A DNA stretch of 25,439 nucleotides from Rhodothermota bacterium (GCA_009885415.1 VFKU01000787.1:1-25439), one strand, 5' to 3'; counted from the first letter of the stretch, positions 1 to 20,172 are shown. Translations and numbers: made by a program. Notes: generated by a model from the letters alone, not told the origin.

Positions 1-53
1 GCGAGTCCTTTGAGGATCGAGCGGCGGGTGATAGTGGGGGATGGGTGGGACAT
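1..53 (-). CDS. 5' end of a probable Tat-exported protein (partial, runs off the left edge)
   Basis: Minus-strand ATG at 53-51, preceded by GGAG, reads MSHPSPTITRRSILKGL. TRRSILK matches the twin-arginine consensus (S/T)RRxFLK. Not in the ORF track because it is truncated. Confidence 0.6.
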   Translation of the reverse strand, partial: MSHPSPTITRRSILKGL

Positions 54-195
54 TCGAAGGTCTCCATGAGTACGAATCGCGGATGGCTTCGACGCCTCGC
101 CCAATTCGTGCTCGTTACAGTGGCTCAAGTTCAAAATCTCGCTTTCTCCACCCCCTCGAACCGTTTGACCAGGGAGCGTAAATTCTCATAAATGA

Positions 196-1167
196 TCACA
201 GGCTAAAAAGGTTATCGGGCACAACAATGACGAGGGATTTATCCGTTTCGACTTCGTTCACTCTACGGTTGTAGCACTCAAGAAAGCTTCTTAGACTTCC
301 ACCAACCGCTTTAGCCGAAAAAAAGGAATTCTCATCCAAATTTGTCGCGACGAAGGCTTCTATTGAGAGCACAGTAACCTTCTCGGGATTCGAATAATCT
401 TCAATCAGCCCGCGAGCCGTGGGAACGCGTTTTTCGGGAACCAAGAGATAAGGGCGTAGACCCGCAACTATATTCTGTTCGCAGCGCTGGCAATGTCCTT
501 GGTTGGGCGCGACCGTTATGTGGAATGCGACGTCATTGAGAACAAAATCGCCGTGTCGACCAAGTTGCTTGTCTGCGGTTGTAACACTCTGGTTCTCAAC
601 TCGAATTTGCGGAAAACTTACTTCGAGTTTCGCGCCGACCATGTGCTGCGCCACCGATCCATCCTTTTTGAAAACTCTGGCGGACGCTAAAATCCGCTGA
701 ATGTTCTCGAATGTACTCAGGGCGGGGTCGAGCGCGACTTCCAGCCGGCGATCGGCGAGCCAATCCTGAACTCTATCGGCGAGAAAACTCTGACACCTTC
801 CGATCAGTTCGAGTCTCTTCGAAACAGCCAGCTTCTCTATCCCAGCGTCACCGAGGAGGCTTAACAATTCCTCGCAATTCGGAATGTTTCCTCGATTAGT
901 CCGGATTCCATCCCCCACGAATTCCTTCTCAATTCCATATCGTTCGTTAAGTAATTTTCTTAGTCGCGCAGGAGACGCACCGGCGATCTGGGTGCCTTTT
1001 TCTGCACGATGACTTTGAATGTTCAGATTGCAGTCATTCCTCAAACGCTCAAGCAAAATGAACGACGATCCAATGGCTCCTCTGGAAGGAAATCCGTCGG
1101 GCTGCAACTGAAGAGCGTTGAACCACTTGGAGAACGCCAGGAAAGTATTTTCGATGGATGGTTTCAA
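196..1167 (-). CDS. DUF4928-like protein, putative restriction endonuclease partner of the adjacent methyltransferase (about 323 aa)
   Basis: Motifs VAQHMVGAKL, ADKQLGRHGDF..FHITVAP, SIEAFVATN and YNRRVNEVETDKSL resemble the DUF4928 family as I recall it. Preferred start is TTG at 1167-1165, overlapping the upstream TGA (TTGA); the track start at 1200 is also a TTG. The endonuclease role is inferred from gene context. Confidence 0.7.
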   Translation of the reverse strand: MKPSIENTFLAFSKWFNALQLQPDGFPSRGAIGSSFILLERLRNDCNLNIQSHRAEKGTQIAGASPARLRKLLNERYGIEKEFVGDGIRTNRGNIPNCEELLSLLGDAGIEKLAVSKRLELIGRCQSFLADRVQDWLADRRLEVALDPALSTFENIQRILASARVFKKDGSVAQHMVGAKLEVSFPQIRVENQSVTTADKQLGRHGDFVLNDVAFHITVAPNQGHCQRCEQNIVAGLRPYLLVPEKRVPTARGLIEDYSNPEKVTVLSIEAFVATNLDENSFFSAKAVGGSLRSFLECYNRRVNEVETDKSLVIVVPDNLFSL

Positions 1168-2783
1168 GAGGCGTATGCAGGCGTGCTGCCCGGGCGACAA
1201 CGTATTAATTCATTTAGGACCGGGTTGAGATAGTACTTCGAAATCCAGTCCACGGCAGGCACGCAGACCGCATCTCCAAATCCAAACAACGCCTGATTCC
1301 CTTTGACAGTAATGCGGAAGTCGCCCGCCCCCATCAGTCTCGCACATTCTCTCGGCGTAAGCAGCCGTGCTTTATAGCGCCCATACCCGGCCTTGAAAAG
1401 AATTTGCCGTGCACTGCCACCTTTGGGGGTGCGAAGACAACCCGCTATGCCGTCGCATCTAAGCTCCGCTGTCGACACACCATTGCGTATTCGACGGAAC
1501 ACGGTTCCATATGCCCAGACTCGTTTCTTCATCATTTCGCATGCGAGCTTCTTGTGCCTTTCACTCATCTGACTAAGGAGATAATCCGCGCGATCCTCCG
1601 ACCACCATTCGGGCGCAGCATCCGGAAAATCTTCCAGAATTTCCTTAAGCTCAATAGACAGAACAGGTGGCGGCGGTAAATCGCGAACACGCCACCTTAT
1701 ATCCGGAGATTGAAAAATAAAATCCGCCAGCACAGCTGGCCGCACAGCGCTCTGGTAGAACAGAGGTTCTTCTGCGACTTGATGGACGACGTCTAAGTTT
1801 TCACGAATGCCAATGACAAATAGTCTTTGTCTGCTCTGGGGCACAAAATTAAGCGCATCGAGAATAAATGCGTCGACTGCATAGCCAAGATCGTTTAGCA
1901 TACGGAGCGCATCGCGAAAGTCGTTGCCATTGTGCGAGCTAAGAAATCCAGGCACGTTTTCTATAAGTACTATAGCGGGTCGTTTCTCCTGCATCAGTCT
2001 TAGACAATTCGTGAAACCCCAGAAAGCAGATGAATGCTTGCCTTGAAGCCCGCGGCGTGCACCAGCCAATGACAAGTCGGTGCAAGGGAACGATGCAGTT
2101 GCTAGTGTTGCAGCGGGAATCTTCGAAGCGTCGAGCGAGTTCACGTCCTCAAGCAAATAGAGACCATTCGCCCCATCATCGAATTGCGCCTCGTACATCT
2201 CCTTTTTTGCCGGATCGATGTCATTTGCAAACACTGTTCGCCAGCCAGATTTTTCCAAACCCATTCTCATTAAACCGATTCCTGCGAAGAATTCCAGTAC
2301 AGTTCTCCCTAGTAGGCGTTCGATTATGTCTCTGGGCACCCTATCTTCTAAGATTGTTCGCTCAACAGTTGTTACGCACTCATCTGCCCGAGCGCGAATA
2401 TCAGCCTCCCAAAATCGCAGGACTTTCCAGCCTTCTAGCAGCAACTGCGAGGTCGATTCGATATCTCGCTCCATATTACGTCGAATCTTGCGTGTCCAGT
2501 AATCCTTGGAAGATGTAGCGGTAAATTGATCCTCAATGCAGGCGAGATCTCGCGTCTGCCATTGAGCACCGTGCCAGAACTCGCCATCAACAAATATCGC
2601 AACTCGATGCTTTGCCAACACCAAATCCGGTTTGCCCGGAAGAGTCCGATCGCAGACACGGAAGCGGAGACCGCGTTTAGATAGTGCGTGCCTAAGCAAT
2701 AGCTCCGGTTCAGTGCCGTCGCTCCTTACGCGCCGCATCCGATCAGAAATCGAAGCCGTGGATTTTAAGGATTTTCGGGCCAT
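1164..2783 (-). CDS. vsr-dcm: Vsr (very-short-patch repair) endonuclease fused to a DNA (cytosine-5) methyltransferase (about 539 aa)
   Basis: N-terminal Vsr motifs: MRRVRSDGTEPE, LPGKPDLV, IFVDGEFWHG, YWTRKIRRNMERD, GWKVLRFWE. C5-MTase motifs: I FFAGIG, IV FPC (SFPCTDLS), VI ENV, VIII QSRQRLF, IX RLLTPRECARLMG, X FGDAV. No stop between the domains. ATG at 2783 is preferred over the track's GTG at 2825. Confidence 0.92.
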   Translation of the reverse strand: MARKSLKSTASISDRMRRVRSDGTEPELLLRHALSKRGLRFRVCDRTLPGKPDLVLAKHRVAIFVDGEFWHGAQWQTRDLACIEDQFTATSSKDYWTRKIRRNMERDIESTSQLLLEGWKVLRFWEADIRARADECVTTVERTILEDRVPRDIIERLLGRTVLEFFAGIGLMRMGLEKSGWRTVFANDIDPAKKEMYEAQFDDGANGLYLLEDVNSLDASKIPAATLATASFPCTDLSLAGARRGLQGKHSSAFWGFTNCLRLMQEKRPAIVLIENVPGFLSSHNGNDFRDALRMLNDLGYAVDAFILDALNFVPQSRQRLFVIGIRENLDVVHQVAEEPLFYQSAVRPAVLADFIFQSPDIRWRVRDLPPPPVLSIELKEILEDFPDAAPEWWSEDRADYLLSQMSERHKKLACEMMKKRVWAYGTVFRRIRNGVSTAELRCDGIAGCLRTPKGGSARQILFKAGYGRYKARLLTPRECARLMGAGDFRITVKGNQALFGFGDAVCVPAVDWISKYYLNPVLNELIRCRPGSTPAYAS

Positions 2784-2810
2784 TCGCAAGGTACTCTGTG
2801 TTTTCAGACA

Positions 2811-2839
2811 AGCATACGGACTCACATTTCTAAGCGCAA
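2811..2839 (-). promoter_or_regulatory. Candidate sigma70 promoter for the vsr-MTase/DUF4928 operon
   Basis: On the minus strand, TTGCGC (2839-2834), a 17-nt spacer and TATGCT (2816-2811); the -10 box ends 27 nt upstream of the ATG at 2783. Confidence 0.45.
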
Positions 2840-2880
2840 GGTGCTAGGACACGACCGGAGGACAACCTCAGGCGCTACCT

Positions 2881-4047
2881 TCAATACGACTTCGGCAGGC
2901 CCATGACGTGTTCGCCGATGAAATTTAGCGCCATTTCTTGCGAGACGGGCGCGATTTTGTAGAGCCGGACCTCGCGCCAGAGCCGCTCGATGTGGTACTC
3001 GCGGGCGTAGCCCATGCCGCCGTGGGTTTGGAGCGAGGCGTCGCAGGCCTCGAAGCCGGCGTCGGCGGCGCGCAGCTTGGCGATGTTCGCTTCCGCGCCG
3101 CAGGCGTGGTTGTGGTCGTAGAGCCACGCGCCGTGCAGCACCATGAGCCACGCGACCTCGAGCTTGCTGTAGGCCTCGGCCAGCGGAAACTGGATGCCTT
3201 GGTTCGCACCGATGGGCCGGCCGAAGACGACGCGCTCCTTCGCGTAGCGCACGCCGAGGTCGAGCGCGGCGCGGCCGATGCCGACCGCTTCCGCGGCGAC
3301 CATGAGCCGCTCGGGGTTGAGCCCGGAAATGAGCTGGTAAAAGCCCTTGCCTTCTTCGCCGACGAGCGCGCTCGCGGGCACGCGGACCTGGTCGAGGAAG
3401 AGTTCGTTCGAGTCCACCGCCGCGCGGCCGAGCTTGTCGATCTCGCGGATGGTGACGCCGGGCAAGGTGAGGTCGACGAGGAAGAGCGACATACCCATCG
3501 TCTTCTTCTCGCACTGCTCGAAGGGCGTCGTGCGCGCGAGGAGCAGCGTCCGGCCCGAGCGCTGCAAATTGCTCGACCAGACTTTCTTGCCCGTGATGAG
3601 GTAGTCGTCGCCGTCGCGCACCGCGCGCGTCGTGATGCGCGAGGTGTCGGTGCCGGCGTCGGGCTCGGTGATGCTGAAGCCGAGGCTGAGTTCGCCCGCG
3701 GCGATTTTCGGGAGGAGATCCTTTTTCTGTTCTTCGCTGCCGTACTTGATCACCGGCATCGGGGGAAAAAACGCGAAGTGTACCGGCGAGGCGCCGGTGG
3801 TGCCTGCGCCGGCCGCGCAGATCTCGTGGAGGACGAGACAGGCTTCCGTGATGCCCAGGCCCGCGCCGCCGTAGGCCTCGGGGATGACGACCCCGAGCCA
3901 GCCTGCGTCGGCCATGGCTTTCAGGAAGGCCTCAGGATAGGTGGCGCTCGCGTCGCGCTCGCGCCAATAGTCCAGCCCGAAGCGGTTGCACAGGGCGCGG
4001 ACTTGTGTGCGGATCGCTTCGTGCTCTTCGCTGAGAGTGAAATTCAT
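2881..4047 (-). CDS. Acyl-CoA dehydrogenase family protein (388 aa)
   Basis: FSITEPDAGTD, ITGKKVWSS, LNPERL, VFGRPIGANQGIQF, LQTHGGMGYAREYHIERLWRE motifs. Confidence 0.93.
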   Translation of the reverse strand: MNFTLSEEHEAIRTQVRALCNRFGLDYWRERDASATYPEAFLKAMADAGWLGVVIPEAYGGAGLGITEACLVLHEICAAGAGTTGASPVHFAFFPPMPVIKYGSEEQKKDLLPKIAAGELSLGFSITEPDAGTDTSRITTRAVRDGDDYLITGKKVWSSNLQRSGRTLLLARTTPFEQCEKKTMGMSLFLVDLTLPGVTIREIDKLGRAAVDSNELFLDQVRVPASALVGEEGKGFYQLISGLNPERLMVAAEAVGIGRAALDLGVRYAKERVVFGRPIGANQGIQFPLAEAYSKLEVAWLMVLHGAWLYDHNHACGAEANIAKLRAADAGFEACDASLQTHGGMGYAREYHIERLWREVRLYKIAPVSQEMALNFIGEHVMGLPKSY

Positions 4048-5631: not shown

Positions 5632-6282
5632 CTACGACGATGCGGGGGCAGGGGCTTTCTTGGCGGGGCCGATGCCGCGGGTGGTGGCGAATTGGGAGAG
5701 GAGGCCGATGATCGAGAGCGCGATCCATGCGCCGATGACCCAGACGCGCTGGTCTTCGGAGCGCATGGCGGCGCGGAAGGGTTCGATGGGGTCGGTGCCG
5801 CCCTCGTAGAAATACACGCCGCAGGCGATGAGCATCCACGCGCCGAGGACGGAGGTGGCGACGAGCATGACCGGCTTCTCGAGGATCATCGCCATGAGTC
5901 CGCCCACCATGCCGATGCCGAAGACGAAGAGCGGGGCCCAGGCGTCGCCGGAATTTCGGAAGATGTGGTCGGCAATGAGTCCGGCGCCGAGCAGGCCCAC
6001 GAGAAAGATGCCGGCGCGGTAGACGAAGAAGAGCGCAAACGCGCCCGAGATGCCGCCGAGGCCGAGGCCGATGAGTGCGGCGGACTGGTTTCCCCGCGTG
6101 ATCCATAGCGCGATGCTCGCGGCGACACCGCCGGCGAGCAGAAAGCCGGTGAGCGCGATGACGAAGCGGAGGGTGCGGTAGCCGAGGAAGCAATACAGCG
6201 TGCCGACGGCGACCGCGGCGGCCATGACGCCGTTGAGCTGGCTCGGAGTGAGCTTGTCGATGTCGAAGCCCCAATCCGGCAC
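5632..6282 (-). CDS. DUF4203 (TM7S3/TMEM198-like) multi-pass membrane protein (about 216 aa)
   Basis: LYCFLGYRTLRFVIALTGFLLAG, Gly-rich TM repeats, ATSVLGA and final GLLSQF pattern. GTG start at 6282 follows an AGGGGG Shine-Dalgarno-like site; the track's N-terminal 69 aa look non-coding. Confidence 0.7.
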   Translation of the reverse strand: MPDWGFDIDKLTPSQLNGVMAAAVAVGTLYCFLGYRTLRFVIALTGFLLAGGVAASIALWITRGNQSAALIGLGLGGISGAFALFFVYRAGIFLVGLLGAGLIADHIFRNSGDAWAPLFVFGIGMVGGLMAMILEKPVMLVATSVLGAWMLIACGVYFYEGGTDPIEPFRAAMRSEDQRVWVIGAWIALSIIGLLSQFATTRGIGPAKKAPAPASS

Positions 6283-6487
6283 GTGCGTATCCCCCTGTTC
6301 CGCCGTGATTGTCGCGCCCGAGAGACGGCAATTCAACCCGGCGGCACGGGCGGCGCGCGAGTTGCCCGCCGACGCGGGAATTTGGCATACTTCCCGCCGC
6401 TGCAACGCACGCATGGCGTCCACTCCGCACCCGTCCCGCGGTCCACGCCGCGCACCATCCACACAGAGGCATTCACGCGCTCGCCCC

Positions 6488-8425
6488 ATGGATCACGCTG
6501 CTGACATCGCGCCCGATCGGCCCTGGTTTCGCCGCTACACGAAGCTCGTCGCGGCGGCGACGCTGTGCCTGATCTTTCTTGGCGGCCAGGTGAAAAGTCA
6601 CGAAGCGGGGCTGGCGGTGCCCGATTGGCCGACGACCTACGGGCAGAACATGTTGCTGTATCCGATCGACCAGTGGGTCGGCGGGATTTTTCATGAGCAT
6701 CTCCACCGTGTCGTCGCCACTTCGCTTGGAGTTCTTTGCATTATTCTCGCCGTGTGGATGGCGCTGGCGGAGCGCCGTCGCTGGGCGCGGTGGCTGGGCG
6801 TGGCCGCGCTGGGCATGGTCATCGTGCAGGGCCTCTTCGGCGGCCTGACGGTGTGGCTGCTCTTGCCTGCGTGGGTCTCGACCACGCACGCGATCCTCGC
6901 GCAAACTTTTCTTCTGCTCACGCTGTTCATCGCGTATTCACAGTCGCGCGAACGCCGCGCGCGCGAGGCGTCCGCCGGCGATTCGGGTTCCTGGCGCGAT
7001 GCGGCGCCCGCGCTGATTGTGCTTGCGCTGGTGTATGTGCAATTGCTCGCCGGCGCGCTGATGCGGCACACGGAATCGGGCTTGGCGATTCCGGACTTCC
7101 CGGCGATGGCCGGCGGGTGGCGGCCGTGGTTCGACGTGAGTTCGGTGGCGTGGGTAAACGCGTGGCGCGCGGATTATGCCTTCGAAACTGGGCAGGCGCT
7201 TGACCCGGTCACGCTCGGACAAATCTGGATCCATTTCACGCATCGCGCGGGCGCGGTGCTTGTTGCGCTTGGCGCGATCTACGCCGCGTGGCGCGCCTGG
7301 GCGCGGCAGGACGAAGCGCCGGCGGTGTTTCGCACGGCCTTCGTGCTCGTTGCGCTGGTCGCGTGTCAGGTTGCGCTCGGCATCGTGACCGTCCTCTCGC
7401 ATAGGATTCCGTTTATCGCGAGTTTGCACTTGGTCATCGGCGCGGCGACGCTTGGTTGCACGGCGTTGCTTGCGCTGCGCGCGATGCCGCTGAGACTTCG
7501 GCGCGCCGCGGCGAACGCGCCCGTCGCGGTGGTTTCTGCGGTCCGCGCGCGTTCGACCTTCGGCGCCTACCTCGAACTGACCAAGCCGCGTATCGCCGTG
7601 ATGGTGCTGGTGACGGCGGCGCTGGGTTACTACTTCAACGCGATTACTTCACGCGAGTTCCCCGGCTGGCTGCAATTTGCGATGGCGATGCTGGGCATCG
7701 CGATGTCCGGCGGCGGGGCCTCGGCGCTGAACCAGTATCTCGAACGCGATGTCGATGCGCGGATGGAACGCACCCGCGGACGGCCCCTGCCTTCAGGCCA
7801 GTTGTCGCCGGCCGCCGCGCTGTACTTTGGCGTTGCGCTCGTGCTCGGCGGCTGCTTCCTGCTGCTGTGGCAGGTCAATTTGCTCGCGGCCTTCCTGACG
7901 CTGCAAAGCGCTTTCTTGTATGTCCTCGTGTACACGCCGATGAAACGGCTGACCTGGTGGAACACGTCGATCGGCGCGGTGCCCGGCGCGATGCCGCCGC
8001 TCATCGGCTGGGCCGCGGCGACCGGCACGCTCGATCTCGGCGCATGGATCTTTTTCGCCGTCCTCTACCTCTGGCAGCACCCACACTTTTTTGCGATTGC
8101 GTGGATGTACCGCGAAGACTACGCGCGCGGCGGGCTCAAGATGCTCCCCGTCGTGCAGCCCGACGGCCGCAACATGTTCGCGCAGGTGATTCTGTTTTCC
8201 GTCGTGCTTATTCCGGTCTCGCTGGCGCCTTGGCTGAGCGCGATGAGCGGGTGGACGTATTTTATCGGGGCGATGCTGCTAGGGCTGATGATGCTCGCGG
8301 CGGGCATCGCGTTTACCGTGACCCATTCGCACCAGGCGGCGCGGCGCGTGCTGCACGTCTCGCTGCTGTATCTCCCCGGCCTCCTGTTGGCCGTGTGGAT
8401 CGACGCCATGATCCGGTTGCCGTAG
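6488..8425 (+). CDS. ctaA-ctaB: Fused heme A synthase (CtaA/COX15) and heme O synthase (CtaB/CyoE) (about 645 aa)
   Basis: CtaA part: AGLAVPDWP, EHLHR, TTHAILA, HFTHR, ASLHL. Ala/Arg-rich linker at about 7490-7555. CtaB part: YLELTKPRI, NQYLERDVDARMERTRGRPL, VYTPMKR, IGAVPGAMPPLIGW, WQHPHFFAIA, DYARGG. Confidence 0.92.
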   Translation: MDHAADIAPDRPWFRRYTKLVAAATLCLIFLGGQVKSHEAGLAVPDWPTTYGQNMLLYPIDQWVGGIFHEHLHRVVATSLGVLCIILAVWMALAERRRWARWLGVAALGMVIVQGLFGGLTVWLLLPAWVSTTHAILAQTFLLLTLFIAYSQSRERRAREASAGDSGSWRDAAPALIVLALVYVQLLAGALMRHTESGLAIPDFPAMAGGWRPWFDVSSVAWVNAWRADYAFETGQALDPVTLGQIWIHFTHRAGAVLVALGAIYAAWRAWARQDEAPAVFRTAFVLVALVACQVALGIVTVLSHRIPFIASLHLVIGAATLGCTALLALRAMPLRLRRAAANAPVAVVSAVRARSTFGAYLELTKPRIAVMVLVTAALGYYFNAITSREFPGWLQFAMAMLGIAMSGGGASALNQYLERDVDARMERTRGRPLPSGQLSPAAALYFGVALVLGGCFLLLWQVNLLAAFLTLQSAFLYVLVYTPMKRLTWWNTSIGAVPGAMPPLIGWAAATGTLDLGAWIFFAVLYLWQHPHFFAIAWMYREDYARGGLKMLPVVQPDGRNMFAQVILFSVVLIPVSLAPWLSAMSGWTYFIGAMLLGLMMLAAGIAFTVTHSHQAARRVLHVSLLYLPGLLLAVWIDAMIRLP

Positions 8426-13717: not shown

Positions 13718-14383
13718 ATGGCCAAGCAAATCCGCGGTATCAAGACCCAGGATCGTATCGTCCGTCGCGCAGCACAGTTGGCTTCAGTCGAAGGGCTCGA
13801 GGGTCTCAGTGTGGGGCGACTCGCGGAGGCGCTGGGTCTGTCCAAAGGCGGGCTCTTCGCGCACTTCGGCTCGAAGGACGCGCTCCAGCTTGCCGTGATC
13901 GAAGAGGCGCGTCGTGTGTTTTCTGAGGCCGTCCTCGTACCGGCGGAGAGCACACCCGAAGGGTTGCCGCGTCTCTTCGCGTTGCAGGCCCAGTGGATTG
14001 CTTACCTCCATGCGGAGAGTTTCAAGGGAGGCTGTTTTTTCGCGGCGGCCTCGGCGGAATTCGACGGCCGTCCCGGCCCGGTGCGCACGCGGATCGCGGC
14101 GCTGGCCGGCCAATGGCGGGAGCGCCTGGCGGGCGAGGCGAGGCGGTCCAAGGAGCTGGGCCACCTGAATCCAGACGCGGATCCGGCCCGGCTCGCCTTT
14201 TTGCTCCACGCGATCACGCTCGAGGCGAACTGGGCCCACCAGCTTCTGGGCGACCCGGACTGTTTCGTCCACGCGCGCGAAGCCTCCGAGGCGTGCCTGC
14301 GCGCCGAGGCGACGCCCGAGGGCCTGCGCGCGACGAAGGCCCGGCGCGTCGTGCCCGCGCGTCCCGAGGGTGTGCTATCCTAG
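13718..14383 (+). CDS. TetR/AcrR family transcriptional regulator (221 aa)
   Basis: GLEGLSVGRLAEALGLSKGGLFAHFGSKDAL HTH; C-terminal GGCFF motif. Confidence 0.93.
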   Translation: MAKQIRGIKTQDRIVRRAAQLASVEGLEGLSVGRLAEALGLSKGGLFAHFGSKDALQLAVIEEARRVFSEAVLVPAESTPEGLPRLFALQAQWIAYLHAESFKGGCFFAAASAEFDGRPGPVRTRIAALAGQWRERLAGEARRSKELGHLNPDADPARLAFLLHAITLEANWAHQLLGDPDCFVHAREASEACLRAEATPEGLRATKARRVVPARPEGVLS

Positions 14384-14455
14384 TGAGCGCGCCGGGTCCG
14401 CGCGGCTGCGCGATTCCATCGATACGCGTCCCAGGTGCAAGAGGAGGGTCCCACC

Positions 14456-14929
14456 GTGGCGGATCAGGGCGGCGACGTGGCCATTGTCGAAGCGGGCGCG
14501 GAGGATATCGATCTCCTCGTCCCGCTCTTCGACCAGTACCGCATGTTCTACGGCGAGCCCAGCGATCTCGCGCTTGCGCGGCAATTCATCGGCGCGCGGC
14601 TCGAACAGCGCGATTCGGTCATTTTTCTCGCGCTGGGCGGCGGCGCCGATGAGATCGGCCTCGGCTTTGCCCTGCTTTATCCCTCCTTCAATTCCGTGCT
14701 CGCCACGCCCATCTGGATTCTCAACGACCTTTATGTGCTCGAAGGGGTCCGACGCAAAGGCGTCGCGCGCCTGCTCATCGACGAGGGGCGCAGCCTGGCC
14801 GAAGAGACCGGCGCGACCGTCATTTCGCTGTCTACGAAACGGGAGAACCAGCCTTCCAGGCGGTTATACGAGCGGCTCGGATTTACGTTGGACGACGATT
14901 TCTGCACTTATCTGCTGCGCTTGGGCTGA
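14456..14929 (+). CDS. GNAT family N-acetyltransferase (about 157 aa)
   Basis: LFDQYRMFY, WILNDLYV, RRKGVARLL (acetyl-CoA motif A), N..SRRLYERLGF. GTG at 14456 follows GAGGAGG. Confidence 0.9.
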   Translation: MADQGGDVAIVEAGAEDIDLLVPLFDQYRMFYGEPSDLALARQFIGARLEQRDSVIFLALGGGADEIGLGFALLYPSFNSVLATPIWILNDLYVLEGVRRKGVARLLIDEGRSLAEETGATVISLSTKRENQPSRRLYERLGFTLDDDFCTYLLRLG

Positions 14930-15094
14930 GTTGCGGCCACGTCCGTGCTCATGGCCCTCGCGGGTGTCAAGAAATAGCTAGACCTAAGTCCAAGGATTTG
15001 GTAGGCTTAGAGTTGCATTCGCGGCGCCAGGCCCCGACGGTCCGGCGTCCGCATCGGTTGCCGGACTGCGGCGCGACGTAAGGAAGGGCCACGC

Positions 15095-18000
15095 ATGATC
15101 GGGAGTATTCTTGCCAGAGGTTGGTGGGCGCGAGCGATCTGCGTGGCAGCGGGCGTGTGGGCCTGCGCAGGCCATGCCATCGCCCAAGACGGCATTCCGC
15201 CGTTGCTGAGCCGCGAACCGCTCGGCGCAACTGGCGCGCGCGGTTTTGCGTCTCCGCTCGCCGTCAACGTCTCGCTCTACCGCGACACGCTCACCGCCGG
15301 CGACAAGGCGCTCTACAACGAAATCTTCGGCCACTTCGCGGACGCCGTCTTCGAGGCGACCGAGGGGCAACACTTCGTTGAGAAGATCACCGTCTTCCAA
15401 AATGGCCAGCCCGTGGTCGATACGCCGCCCGTTATTACCATCTCCGGCGATACCCCGGTCAACCTCGAAGTCGGAGATGTCTATCTCGAGCAAGGCGCGA
15501 CCGCCTTCGACACGCCCGATGGCGACCTCACCTCGAGCGTGATTACCTTCGGCAGCGTGAACACGGCGATTGCAGACACTTACTTTGTCGCCTACATCGT
15601 CAACGACTCGGCCGGCCAACAGACCATCGAATTCCGGATCGTGAATGTCATCGGCAAAGATCCCGTGATCACGATATGGGGACAGAATCCACTGACCATG
15701 ACGGAAGATACGCCCTACCCGTACGCCCCTGGAACGCCAATTTTTGGCGAGCCTTTTGTACGAGCCCTCGACGTCTCGGATGGCCTGCTCACGTCTCCCA
15801 ATTTAACCTCTTCCTTCGACGTGGACACGAGCGAACCCGGCACGTACTTCGTCACCTACGAGGCCACGGATTCACAGGGAAACATCACGCGGGCCGCGCG
15901 CAAGGTCAATGTCGTGGTCGAGAATTCCGAGGATCCGGTAATCCAAATCCTAGGGCCACCCCTCCCGCCCGCCCCGCCCGGCCCCTTCCCGCCGGAAGTC
16001 CCCGACCAAAACAATAGCGGTAATCCGCTGACTATCGAAGTCGGCGACGTATTCTATGATCCGGGGGCGGAGTCTGGCGGGGCCCTCGTCACCGAGTACG
16101 ATCAGGATCTTCAGAACGGGCAAATCGCGCAATTCGACGGCACCTACTTCGTTGTTTACACCGCGACGGACGCGGAAGGCAGGACGGTCACCGAAACCCG
16201 GACTGTGGTCGTGGTCGGGAAAGACCCCGTGATACAAATCGACGGGGACAACCCCGCCACGGTCGATGTCGGATCGGCGTATATAGACCCTTGGGCGACC
16301 GCCTCCGACGTCTCGGACGGCGACCTCACGGATCAAATCGAGGCCGTGAGCGACCTCGATACGATGACGCCGGGGACCTACTTCATCCAATACCAAGTCA
16401 CCGACTCGAAAGGAAACACGACAACGGAGTTTCGCCAGGTCAACGTGGTGAAGTCCCTGGATTACGGGCAGACGTCGAACGTTTTCTGGCTGCCGTCCGG
16501 CGTGCCCAATTTCCGGCTGAGCGGGGGCATTGGCACCGGCGGCGGACAAGTCACGATGTACGACATTTTCGAGAATGGCGAAGCGGGCGCCGACATCAAC
16601 TTCCTCTCCACATCGCAGAACCGGCGCCGCGCGGGATATATCCTCGCGTCCCTGTGGATGCAGTATTACCTCGGCCTGGGGACTGAATTTAAGGACATCG
16701 GATCGGACATCGCGGTGAGGAATTCATTGCTGGCCGATCCCTTCTCGCCTGCGCTCGCGCCGGACGGGGCGGGGCTCAATCTTTCCGCGACGCTCGACGG
16801 CGTGGCCACGGCCGGCCAGTTCGATCTCTTCGAAGATACACGCGCCACGTCGCAGTTCCGCTTGCAAGGCGCCAGCGCGTGGGCAACCATCGCCCGCTCC
16901 TACGATCCCAAGTCCGCGCGGCTCATCGCCAAACGGCCCCGGACCTTCTATCCGGAGTTGGCCGCCGCTGCCCCGGTCGGCACCGCCGCGCCTGTGACAA
17001 ACTTGTCGTCCGTGCCGACGGGCTCTTTCCTGGGAACAAAGTATCTCAAGGGCGAGCGCTCCTTCTTCCGCATTGCCAGCGAAAACACGCTTCCCGTCGT
17101 CCGCGGTCAACGCAAGCGGGCCGCAGACCCTTGTGTCCCCGGACGCCTCATCGACATACCCACGACCGCACCCATCGTCTTCGAGTTCCCCGTTGACTCC
17201 AATCTGCTGGAATTGAGCGTATCGATTTCCGAGCCATGCACCAGCGACCTCATCAATCTCGATTCCATACTGATCGATCCCCTGGGTCGCCGCGTCGATC
17301 CGGAGTTTCTCTCAAACGACTCCACACAACGAATATACATAAAGAACCCCTCGGTGGCCGGGAAATGGCGCCTGGAGCTCTCCGCCCGTTCCTTCACCGC
17401 CGAAGGCGTGAAGATCGATGTGACTGCGAGCAGCTTCGAACACAAACACCGAATCTCCGCGGATCTCGTCCATAAACCCAGCAACTTGGCCACGCGCGTC
17501 GTTACGTATCCCGATCCCATCGTGCTGGAAGTGAGCGACACTGCCGGCCAAGCGACGCGCGGCGCCACGGTCAAGGGAAACCTTCGGCTGCCGACCGGTA
17601 CCGAGATTCCCGTGACCTTCTCCGACAACGGCGTCAGCCCGGACCTGATCGCGAACGACGGCAGCTACTCGACTGATCTGCGCTATCCGCAGAACGGAAT
17701 TTACCATCTCGAGGTTTCCATCGCTGACCTTGCGGGCACCGCGTCCCTCACGTACACGGGCACTTCGCGCGCGCCGAGTCTGGGCCTCGACGGCATCGTC
17801 AGCACGCCGGCGCCGGCCGATGTTCCCGTCGGCGAACCGTACATGCGGACCCTGTTTCTCGATTTCACCGTCCAGGACCTCGCTACAGACGATCACGGCA
17901 ATACAGCGGCCGAGTTCACCAGTCTCCTCTTGACGAACGCGGACAAGCCGGGAAGGATCGATACCTCGACCGATATCGACTATTTCCGCATCCAGGTGAG

Positions 18001-18625
18001 GTCGCGCGCGGCCGTCGATACCGTGGCACGACTTACGAACGCGAGCGGCGGTGGGCAATACCTGCTGCGGATGTTCGACTCGACGGGGATCAGGGAGATC
18101 GCGCGCGGGTCGAATGGGCCTTCGGGGTATCCGCAGATTCACGATGATCTGGAACCGGGAGCCTATTTCCTCGCCGTGAGCGCGTCTGGCGCGAAGGTGG
18201 GCGACACTTATTCTGTCAGCGCGGGCCCGCCGATCCCCTCCGATCTGGCGGCGATCGGCATTGATGTGATTTCCGGCGGCAGCCGTGGCGGTGGTGGCGG
18301 AGGCGGGGGTGGCGGGTGCTTCATCGCGACCGCGGCCTACGGCACGCCGCTACAAGCCGAAATCGATCGCATCCGCGGGCTGCGCGATGAGCGTCTGCTT
18401 ACAAATGCGTTTGGCGCCGCGTTCACGGATGCGTACTATCGCTTGAGCCCGCCCGTAGCGAACGCGGTGGCGCAGAGTGGCGCGCTGCGAGTTGGCGTGC
18501 GCGGCGGCATCGAGGCCGTCCTGGCGCTGATGAATCTGGACGCGCGTGCCGTGCTCGCGCTCGGCGCGATCGCGGCCCTTATTCTCACCGCTGGCGCCCG
18601 GAAACTCGGCAAGACCCGCGCTTAA
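15095..18625 (+). CDS. Large secreted/surface protein: signal peptide, split CLCA-like metalloprotease-fold domain with four inserted DUF5011-like Ig domains, choice-of-anchor-X-like motif, PPC-like domain, CFI-box-CTERM tail (1176 aa)
   Basis: Signal peptide ending AIA-Q (aa 1-30); FADAVFEATEGQHFVEKITV (CLCA-like); four PVI.I.G...GTYF..Y...D..G...R.V.V repeats; FSDNGVSPDLIANDGSYS; DDHGNT...IDYFRI; Gly linker followed by GCFIATAAYGTP...LRDERL...YYRLSPP. Confidence 0.8.
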   Translation: MIGSILARGWWARAICVAAGVWACAGHAIAQDGIPPLLSREPLGATGARGFASPLAVNVSLYRDTLTAGDKALYNEIFGHFADAVFEATEGQHFVEKITVFQNGQPVVDTPPVITISGDTPVNLEVGDVYLEQGATAFDTPDGDLTSSVITFGSVNTAIADTYFVAYIVNDSAGQQTIEFRIVNVIGKDPVITIWGQNPLTMTEDTPYPYAPGTPIFGEPFVRALDVSDGLLTSPNLTSSFDVDTSEPGTYFVTYEATDSQGNITRAARKVNVVVENSEDPVIQILGPPLPPAPPGPFPPEVPDQNNSGNPLTIEVGDVFYDPGAESGGALVTEYDQDLQNGQIAQFDGTYFVVYTATDAEGRTVTETRTVVVVGKDPVIQIDGDNPATVDVGSAYIDPWATASDVSDGDLTDQIEAVSDLDTMTPGTYFIQYQVTDSKGNTTTEFRQVNVVKSLDYGQTSNVFWLPSGVPNFRLSGGIGTGGGQVTMYDIFENGEAGADINFLSTSQNRRRAGYILASLWMQYYLGLGTEFKDIGSDIAVRNSLLADPFSPALAPDGAGLNLSATLDGVATAGQFDLFEDTRATSQFRLQGASAWATIARSYDPKSARLIAKRPRTFYPELAAAAPVGTAAPVTNLSSVPTGSFLGTKYLKGERSFFRIASENTLPVVRGQRKRAADPCVPGRLIDIPTTAPIVFEFPVDSNLLELSVSISEPCTSDLINLDSILIDPLGRRVDPEFLSNDSTQRIYIKNPSVAGKWRLELSARSFTAEGVKIDVTASSFEHKHRISADLVHKPSNLATRVVTYPDPIVLEVSDTAGQATRGATVKGNLRLPTGTEIPVTFSDNGVSPDLIANDGSYSTDLRYPQNGIYHLEVSIADLAGTASLTYTGTSRAPSLGLDGIVSTPAPADVPVGEPYMRTLFLDFTVQDLATDDHGNTAAEFTSLLLTNADKPGRIDTSTDIDYFRIQVRSRAAVDTVARLTNASGGGQYLLRMFDSTGIREIARGSNGPSGYPQIHDDLEPGAYFLAVSASGAKVGDTYSVSAGPPIPSDLAAIGIDVISGGSRGGGGGGGGGGCFIATAAYGTPLQAEIDRIRGLRDERLLTNAFGAAFTDAYYRLSPPVANAVAQSGALRVGVRGGIEAVLALMNLDARAVLALGAIAALILTAGARKLGKTRA
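15419..16453 (+). repeat. Four tandem Ig-like (DUF5011-type) protein repeats
   Basis: Repeats begin DTPPVITISG, KDPVITIWG, EDPVIQILG and KDPVIQIDG. Each has a TYF.. motif and ends in a V.V strand. Confidence 0.8.
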
Positions 18626-18795: not shown

Positions 18796-20172
18796 CTACT
18801 GCGCAGGCGGGGTGCCGCGGAGCGAGCGGAGATACGCGACGAGCGCGTCGAATTTTTCGGGGTCCACCGCCGCCGGCGGCATGATCGTGTCCGGCTTGAA
18901 CGATTTGGGGTCCTTGAGCCAGGCGCGCAAAAAGGTGTCTTGCAAGCGCAGGCCCGCGAGCGACAAGTCCGGCCCGATGTCTTTGCCGACGCCGTTTACG
19001 AGATGACAATTGAAACATTTTTGCTCGCGAAAGACCCGGCGCCCAAGCTCGATGGTCGCCGTTTCGTTGTCCGGCGCGGCGGTGGGAGGGGCGGCCGCCG
19101 CCGTTTCTTGATCCTCCGGCTCCGCCGGCATACGCGAGACCCCGTAGGCGGTGAGGCCCATGAAGATCGCGATCAGGACGGCGGCCGCGGCGACGACCGG
19201 CTTGCGGTCGCGCATCGCCGCGGTGCGTCCGCGATCGAGCCAGGGCAGCGCCGCCAGCGCGAGCGCGAGCGCGGCAGGCAGCGCGAAGGCGACGATCGTT
19301 TTTTGCGTCGCGCCGTGCGTCCAGCGCAGGAGCTCGTAATGCGCCAGGAAGTACCACTCCGGCCTCGGCTGATACGACGTATCGGCCAGGTTCAGCGGTC
19401 CCGATTTCGGCCCGCCATACTCGCCCGCGACCAACACGAGCCCCCCCAACACCAGCGTGATGGCCACCATGTCGCGGAAGAACTGCGCGGGATAGAACGC
19501 GGCCATGCGCGCGCTCGTGTCGCTCGCGGCGCGCATCGGGCCGTGCCGGCGCAACAGGAGCAGGTGCAGCGTGACTAGGGCCGCCAGCGCCCCGGGCAGC
19601 ACGACGATGTGCAGTGCATAGAAGCGTGTCAGCGTCAGCGCGCCGACCGTGTCGCCGCCCAGCATCAGCGTGCGAATCGCCGGGCCGATCAACGGCGCCG
19701 ACGAGGCAATCTCAATGCCCACCGTGCCCGCCCAATACCCCATCTGGTCGAAGGGCAGGAGCTGGCCCGTGTACGCGAGCATCACGACCACGCCGAAAAG
19801 GGCCAACCCGGTGATCCAGTTCATTTCCCGCGGCGTGCGATACGCGCCGGTGAAGACGACGCGGCACAGATGAACAAAGACCGCGACGACGGCGAAGGAC
19901 GCGCCCCAGTAGTGGAGCGCGCGGACGAAATCGCCGAGTGTGATGTTCTTTTCGATCCACGCGATGGATTCAAAGGCCGCTTCGGGATGCGGCACGTAGT
20001 ACAAGGCCAGCAGGACGCCCGTCGCAATTTGCGCCAGCAGCAGCGCGCCGGCCACGCTGCCCAGCGTGTTGCGCCATCCGACGCTGGCCGGCATTTCCTC
20101 GCCCAGAAACTCGCGCAGCGCCCGAAGCGCGCCCGTGCGCGATTCCATCCAGTCGCCGATCCGCGAGGCCAT
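18796..20172 (-). CDS. Cytochrome b (unsplit b6 plus subunit IV type) with a fused C-terminal monoheme cytochrome c (458 aa)
   Basis: Four heme-b His ligands (ALHYW, VHLCR, ALHIV, TLHLL), TGQLLPFDQMGYW, Qo-site RPEWYF, CFNCH with distal Met (IMP). Confidence 0.92.
   Translation of the reverse strand: MASRIGDWMESRTGALRALREFLGEEMPASVGWRNTLGSVAGALLLAQIATGVLLALYYVPHPEAAFESIAWIEKNITLGDFVRALHYWGASFAVVAVFVHLCRVVFTGAYRTPREMNWITGLALFGVVVMLAYTGQLLPFDQMGYWAGTVGIEIASSAPLIGPAIRTLMLGGDTVGALTLTRFYALHIVVLPGALAALVTLHLLLLRRHGPMRAASDTSARMAAFYPAQFFRDMVAITLVLGGLVLVAGEYGGPKSGPLNLADTSYQPRPEWYFLAHYELLRWTHGATQKTIVAFALPAALALALAALPWLDRGRTAAMRDRKPVVAAAAVLIAIFMGLTAYGVSRMPAEPEDQETAAAAPPTAAPDNETATIELGRRVFREQKCFNCHLVNGVGKDIGPDLSLAGLRLQDTFLRAWLKDPKSFKPDTIMPPAAVDPEKFDALVAYLRSLRGTPPAQ

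Follow-up and report, generated by a model that had tools for sequence, protein, structure and literature searches.

A CLCA-like pseudo-protease domain with a nested stalk of four Ig-like domains, predicted at the cell surface of a Rhodothermota bacterium

The forward strand of a 25,439-nucleotide stretch of DNA from a Rhodothermota bacterium (GCA_009885415.1, VFKU01000787.1:1-25439; hereafter the window, with positions counted from its first letter) carries at 15095..18625 a gene for a protein of 1176 aa, which we call P0001. It is read in a single open frame and, by its layout, would be a secreted, C-terminally anchored pseudo-protease resembling the CLCA proteins, whose animal members cleave themselves and are studied for the regulation of chloride channels and mucus. 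No other copy of the P0001 family was found in this metagenome-assembled genome (MAG), which is 84% complete. A sequence-only reading of the window had seen here a CLCA-like metalloprotease domain with a degenerate zinc motif, split by four immunoglobulin-like (Ig) domains. The positions and residues that it gave (the CLCA-like start, the Ig block at 15419-16453, S519, L520 and Q523 in the motif, and RTFYPEL, residues 616-622, with its last base at 16960) are all correct in the translated open reading frame.

All features of P0001 are on the forward strand. The protein starts with MIG, as do its relatives P0002 and P0003, and its first 31 residues (15095..15187) read as a signal peptide, with a basic n-region, a hydrophobic core, and an AxA motif, likely cleaved between AIA and QD. 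The N segment of a zincin domain follows (residues 52-106, 15248..15412), with the elements beta1-alphaA-beta2; residues 81-100 (15335-15394) are FADAVFEATEGQHFVEKITV. The chain then runs into an inserted stalk of 345 aa (residues 109-453, 15419..16453), made of four PF16403 Bact_surface_Ig-like domains (E 5.8e-53; 177 bits for a gathering threshold of 27, in four stretches within 109-453). At the start of Ig3, a Pro-rich loop of 21 aa, PPLPPAPPGPFPPEVPDQNNS (15956..16018), is unique to P0001 among its relatives: it faces a gap in P0002-P0004 and has a low predicted local distance difference test (pLDDT) score. The C segment of the zincin domain (residues 454-644, 16454..17026) includes beta3-5, the active-site helix, and the lower subdomain, and it carries at residues 518-532 (16646..16690) the degenerate zinc-binding and catalytic motif ASLWMQYYLGLGTEF.

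After RTFYPELAAAAP, a linker of about 48 aa (17027..17170) stands where active relatives have a VWA domain; P0001 has no VWA match. Two beta-sandwich domains follow (17171..17794), one GBD_Hemicentin-like (PF23560, E 0.0024), the other of the choice-of-anchor-X / Big_6-like type (NF041940, 33 bits for a cut-off of 25). Positions 529-689 of the TIGR00868 hCaCC model match residues 723-885 (E 2.5e-5, 22 bits, where the cut-off for the full-length model is 900), and, judged from the sequence, the two domains would correspond to the beta-rich region of CLCA. A further beta domain (residues ~931-1050, 17885..18244) is weakly PPC-like: the aligned region of P0002 has a weak match to PF04151 PPC (E 0.0049). 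A run of 10 Gly then leads into a CFI-box-CTERM (residues 1065-1141, 18287..18517; NF041770, E 3.1e-19), which scores above its cut-off at residues 1075-1141 (68.6 bits for 40). The protein terminates with a hydrophobic helix, AVLALGAIAALILTAGA, and a basic tail, RKLGKTRA (18548..18622), visible in the sequence and readable as a membrane anchor or a sorting signal. Given the signal peptide at one end and the CFI-box-CTERM, helix, and tail at the other, we describe P0001 as a predicted exported protein, anchored at the cell surface.

The search with residues 454-720 against 1.84 billion cluster representatives resulted in the identification of 130 relatives. We built a family hidden Markov model (HMM) from 47 of them that are uninterrupted, over a region lying about 100 residues from the N-terminus. 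In nearly all relatives, the HMM aligns without interruption over some 250 residues. P0001 gives two matches: residues 52-106 correspond to HMM positions 63-121 (E 2.4e-15), and residues 441-641 to positions 105-307 (E 3.1e-53). Such a split match is found in P0001-P0004 only (4 of the 134 cluster representatives), and in P0001 it is far beyond chance. The Ig insert is missing from P0005, P0006, and some 125 other relatives; in P0005 and P0006, the nearest of those without the Ig block, the insertion point is occupied by a loop of some 12 residues. Because the two segments of P0001 take up consecutive positions of the HMM, they form a single domain, into which the Ig block has been inserted, as the sequence-only reading had proposed. 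The insert lies between beta2 and beta3, and the order of secondary structure elements is identical in the models of P0001 and P0005.

The structures that we obtained for these proteins are all predicted models. Foldseek searches with the P0001 model in Swiss-Prot and the PDB gave Ig and cadherin matches only, which swamped the zincin part. We therefore folded P0005 instead and applied VIA-align to the split model. P0005, a syntenic orthologue from the same genus, serves as a natural deletion of the insert. Its residues 60-345, folded by AlphaFold2 with an alignment of 120 sequences, gave a model with pLDDT 86.5 and a predicted template modelling score of 0.87. Its 11 best matches among the Swiss-Prot AlphaFold models are CLCA1/2/3A/4 (probability 0.99-1.00, E 3e-5 to 2e-3), after which the scores fall sharply, to YbeY and MMP-23. 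The ESM Atlas clusters most similar to P0005 consist of bacterial VWA or hypothetical proteins and have template modelling (TM) scores of 0.64-0.67. They precede three eukaryotic clusters composed entirely (100%) of PF08434, the CLCA N-terminal domain, whose TM of 0.57-0.59 covers 204-213 of 286 residues. For generic zincin clusters the TM is no higher than 0.42-0.47. Among solved structures, the best matches of P0005 are the catalytic domains of adamalysin, ADAM, and ADAMTS (Z up to 9.2), and the solved M64 IgA peptidase scores Z 4.8-5.5. The CLCA N-terminal fold is thus present in the predicted P0005 model, and the P0001 model matches the same zincin chains.

We folded residues 31-690 of P0001 with the same family alignment. 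The pLDDT is 85-96 in the N segment, 90-97 in the C segment, and 55-85 in the Ig stalk. In VIA-align the model superposes on zincin chains over the model range 17..620, both segments included, with 158-170 residues aligned, a root-mean-square deviation of 3.4-4.2 A, and Z up to 9.4 (the latter with about 158 residues), figures that match those of the uninterrupted orthologue. Since the superposition spans both segments, they sit together, in the model, in one zincin-like domain. Both models have the fold of MEROPS clan MA, a mixed beta-sheet with an active-site helix (Z 7-9.4), with matches to the catalytic domains of adamalysin, ADAM, ADAMTS, InhA, and ulilysin.

The alignment of the family column by column demonstrates the loss of the catalytic motif. 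AHEWGHYxYGLYDEY is present in 105 of the 120 members, and SLWMQ of P0001 lies exactly under HEWGH, where the sequence-only reading had put it. This motif is identical to the CLCA consensus HExxHxxxGxxDEY (Lenart et al. 2013, PMC3650047). In P0001 the changes are H519S, E520L, H523Q, and D530T, which remove both His, the catalytic Glu, and the Asp. Over the consensus P0001 reads SLWMQYYLGLGTEF, of which G527 and E531 alone survive and the Tyr has become Phe. Across residues 454-644 there is no His and no Cys. The rest of the domain is well preserved: 55 positions are shared by at least 80% of the family, and P0001 retains 43 of them; six of the 12 lost positions lie within 519-532 and a seventh, M546L, is nearby. 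The clustering of the losses at the motif and the lack of His and Cys in 454-644 indicate that the loss was aimed at the catalytic apparatus and was not a general decay. Zinc-dependent self-cleavage of P0001 is not predicted, given the loss of the ligands.

One could suppose that the domain is still a hydrolase that works through non-canonical residues, in which Q523, E531, and D538, for example, would act together with a different metal or with a network of water. None of the 120 sequences departs from E531, D538 is retained, and the domain is strongly conserved. Yet both His ligands and the general-base Glu have given way to Ser, Leu, and Gln, the segment offers no His or Cys in their stead, and the residues at these sites vary from one close relative to the next (S/H/G/A for the first His, Q/K/D/Y/R/T for the second), unlike a new fixed catalytic set. 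We give this possibility very little credence.

We then inferred a maximum likelihood tree of the domain, with a midpoint root, which is an assumption. It contains four nested and well-supported clades, with support given by the SH-like approximate likelihood ratio test (SH-aLRT). The broken motif defines a clade of 12 members with deep branches (SH-aLRT 96), of which the outermost, P0011 (HHWMH) and P0012 (HLWMR), keep the VWA domain. Within it, 10 members have lost VWA (SH-aLRT 99), a clade of seven nearer relatives includes P0005, P0006, and P0008, all without the insert (SH-aLRT 99), and four members carry the four-Ig cassette (SH-aLRT 98). Across the tree, three changes suffice to explain the broken motif. 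Under the assumed midpoint root, the tree suggests that the motif decayed first, VWA was lost next, and the Ig cassette was gained last, within one genus.

The gene was found in all five species of the genus of the MAG that we searched. The split form is present in G002 and G004; in G001, Ig4 is joined to the C segment and the contig end cuts the copy; in G003 the form is contiguous, and this copy is P0005. A search of the contig collection with residues 441-720 gave no relatives; these were recovered by a separate genome search. The neighbourhood of HlyD, AcrB, TetR, GNAT, and this gene is common to P0001, P0004 (with the insert), and P0005 (without it). As P0004 and P0005 stand in the same neighbourhood as P0001, positional orthologues differ here in whether they carry the insert. 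The P0001 gene (15095-18625) is 47.5% identical to its positional orthologue at L003:6001-10296. Between the same genomes, the neighbours are far more similar: AcrB 91%, GNAT 82%, TetR 72%, and GDH, on the same contig, 93%. The gene thus evolves very fast within a conserved neighbourhood. By the best named relatives of the window's glutamate dehydrogenase, which are 71-78% identical to it, the organism would probably belong to Candidatus Hydrogenedentota.

This divergence is uneven along the protein. The identity between P0001 and its relatives is highest in the C segment of the zincin domain (56-66%) and in the CFI box (61-69%), and the Ig domains stand at 31-53%. The pattern points to a dead zincin fold that is kept under selection. 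It also bears on the idea that this fold is a decaying relic with no function of its own, such that only the Ig stalk and the beta domains would matter. The missing catalytic residues would fit this idea, as would the fast divergence of the whole protein (47% to the orthologue, for 72-91% in neighbouring genes). A relic, however, should not hold the best conserved segment of the protein nor retain most family-conserved positions, and the broken motif would hardly persist through a 12-member clade with deep branches. The frame, too, is intact in all five species (the G001 copy being cut by the contig end). We regard a relic as scarcely credible. The intact frame and the conservation in five species also led us to reject an artefact or a pseudogene.

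Taken together, we consider it highly probable that P0001 is best explained as a CLCA-type zincin domain on the cell surface that no longer works as a metalloprotease. Its zinc ligands, catalytic Glu, and neighbouring Asp have been replaced and the rest of the fold is kept under selection. The four Ig-like domains sit in the loop after beta2; in the model, the two halves of the zincin still come together as a single globular unit, with the Ig stalk protruding from it. The VWA domain of active relatives has been lost. What our analysis shows is the homology, the loss of the motif, the fold as a single domain, the site of the insertion, and the pattern of conservation. The signal peptide would direct export, and the CFI-box-CTERM and the C-terminal helix would retain the protein at the cell. 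In this form it would serve as a non-catalytic module for binding or display (an adhesin, a receptor, or a scaffold), probably through the former substrate groove, the fast-evolving Ig stalk, or both.

Several points weigh against this explanation. No protease family of Pfam or NCBIfam is matched by P0001 or by its pieces 30-110, 454-700, and 454-830 when these are scanned directly. Among the 120 family members, PF08434 is matched by 68 (best E 1.5e-5) and Peptidase_M64 about as often, by 77 (best E 4.7e-5), in both cases always below threshold. We found no structure of a CLCA N-domain in the PDB for direct comparison, and we deduce how the two segments pack from superpositions of a predicted model and from its pLDDT. 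Residual metal binding is possible through the invariant E531, the third acidic residue of the motif. Lastly, the role as an adhesin or scaffold is one that we infer.

Because P0001 has no direct match to a protease family, the CLCA reading was tested through the relatives and the structure. The direct searches were negative beyond the scans above: phmmer with residues 454-1075 against PDB sequences gave nothing, and the ESM Atlas feature search with 454-700 gave no usable match. Neither P0001, its pieces, P0005, nor P0006 matches PF08434 (gathering threshold 25.6 bits). P0001 has no Peptidase_M64 match either (threshold 26 bits) and lacks an intact motif. Hence, the fold and the motif of the relatives bear out the CLCA-like protease domain of the sequence-only reading, and a CLCA_N match in direct scans does not: P0001 is CLCA-like and is not a formal member of the Pfam CLCA family.

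The main competitor on this point is that the domain is a generic zincin or a relative of Peptidase_M64, similar to CLCA only by an HExxHxxxGxxDEY-type motif. In addition to the Pfam counts given above, the only PDB sequences matched by the family profile are M64 IgA proteases (E 0.11), and M64 is the known family closest to CLCA (PMC3650047). Yet the best fold matches of P0005 are CLCA without exception until the sharp drop, the PF08434 clusters match it over most of its length, and the solved M64 structures match it only distantly. The context also speaks for CLCA. The active relatives have the order zincin, VWA, and GBD_Hemicentin-like beta domain, which is the CLCA domain order, and VWA comes directly after PRTFYPELAAAAP in P0007, P0011, P0012, P0014, and P0016 (it is present in others as well). 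Furthermore, TIGR00868 hCaCC is matched by 21 family members and also by the downstream beta region. We hold an M64 or generic zincin origin to be unlikely. P0001 itself departs from the CLCA architecture in having the 48-aa linker, and not VWA, directly after the protease domain.

Our results thus confirm what had been observed in the sequence alone and support its interpretation. Neither of the two outcomes that the sequence-only reading had named as refuting, a lack of CLCA or zincin matches once the insert is deleted and independent folding of the two segments, came about. The architecture, which had not been recognised, is new in part: we found no report in the literature of a multi-domain insertion inside a CLCA catalytic domain. 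Dead bacterial CLCAs are known in kind, as a study of 2013 described bacterial homologues and CLCAs whose catalytic sites are substituted (PMC3650047). The family offers a dated series, from an active zincin with VWA to a dead one with VWA, a dead one without VWA, and a dead one with a nested four-Ig stalk, of which the last step, the gain of Ig, can be seen in one genus at one syntenic locus. With this series one can test the purpose of keeping a dead protease fold and how a globular domain accepts a loop insertion of 345 residues. Current Pfam and NCBIfam models also fail to recognise the family, whose CLCA-like bacterial proteins fall into at least 130 sequence clusters. We tentatively put forward, as a rather doubtful proposal, that the four-Ig cassette was recently inserted, at an orthologous locus in one genus, into an already dead CLCA-like protease, which became a rigid base presenting a fast-evolving stalk. 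The protein may then be an organ of surface recognition (of, e.g., particles, prey, or phage) under diversifying selection. If the recent insertion is true, the comparison of P0001 and P0004 with P0005 would be a natural system to study the origin and the tolerance of nested insertions.

Some relatives carry additional modules at their N-termini. P0002 and P0003 have at residues ~130-300 a trypsin-like serine protease domain (PF13365, E 1e-16) that is not in P0001, and no homologue of this module was found in the 84%-complete MAG. The syntenic orthologue P0004 has at residues ~130-190 a region with an HEIGHGLGF motif and a weak Matrixin match (E 0.023), also not in P0001. A weak relative of this region is found on another contig of the same MAG in a 370-aa open frame (L005, G000:C207:1764-2267; E 2.4e-5, 35% identity). 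The modules of P0002, P0003, and P0004 suggest that a dead-zincin scaffold could also display active enzymes. P0009 and P0010, which lack VWA and have broken motifs, have 350-430 extra N-terminal residues with no Pfam match before a contiguous dead zincin.

Elsewhere in the window, the gene upstream of P0001 (14435-14929, forward strand) encodes the GNAT acetyltransferase whose syntenic counterpart at L003 is 82% identical. An open reading frame at 14370-14981 was considered as a partner gene and rejected: it is unrelated to the 231-aa frame upstream of P0004, overlaps the GNAT gene, which is the real one, in another frame, has no Pfam match, and is probably spurious. On the forward strand, 6200-8425 is one frame in which COX15/CtaA is fused to a UbiA-type prenyltransferase, for the synthesis of heme O and heme A. 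On the reverse strand, 18796-20172 encodes a cytochrome b fused to a C-terminal cytochrome c domain. The first 3000 nucleotides (1-3000) have a G+C content of ~51%, for 62-68% in the rest of the window, and look horizontally acquired.

P0001 can be compared with four types of known systems. Its insert resembles the Ig stalks of bacterial adhesins (PF16403, or RTX repeats such as PDB 6XI1), being made of four PF16403 domains with a model that matches tandem-repeat adhesins and cadherins. In adhesins such repeats are arranged in series along the chain, whereas those of P0001 are set into a loop inside another domain, and the stalk must therefore exit and re-enter the zincin domain at one place. 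With the CLCA N domain (PF08434; metazoan CLCA1-4 and bacterial homologues), P0001 shares the fold and, through its relatives, the HEWGHxxxGxxDEY motif and the domain order; members with substituted active sites also exist among CLCAs (PMC3650047). Unlike them, it lacks the motif and VWA, has four Ig domains inside the catalytic domain, and has a CFI-box-CTERM anchor where CLCA has its own C-terminus, and the bacterial family members all fall below the PF08434 threshold. Peptidase_M64 (PDB 3P1V, 4DF9, 9QDH) has in common with it the zincin fold and, through its relatives, sub-threshold Pfam matches and a similar extended motif, the M64 AHEFGHGLLGLGDEY aligning to the family profile. It differs by the weaker structural match (Z 4.8-5.5) and because M64 members are active proteases outside any context of VWA and beta domains. 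The inactive ADAMs, discussed as the best-studied dead zincins (PMC3650047), share only the fold with P0001: they have no sequence relationship to it, are eukaryotic, and have no nested domain insertion. Like it, they are zincins without zinc ligands, which serve binding and not cleavage. ADAM22 (PDB 3G5C) is among the structural matches of both the P0005 and P0001 models (Z 8.2-8.6), and inactive ADAMs such as this one would be the closest functional analogy for the domain of P0001.

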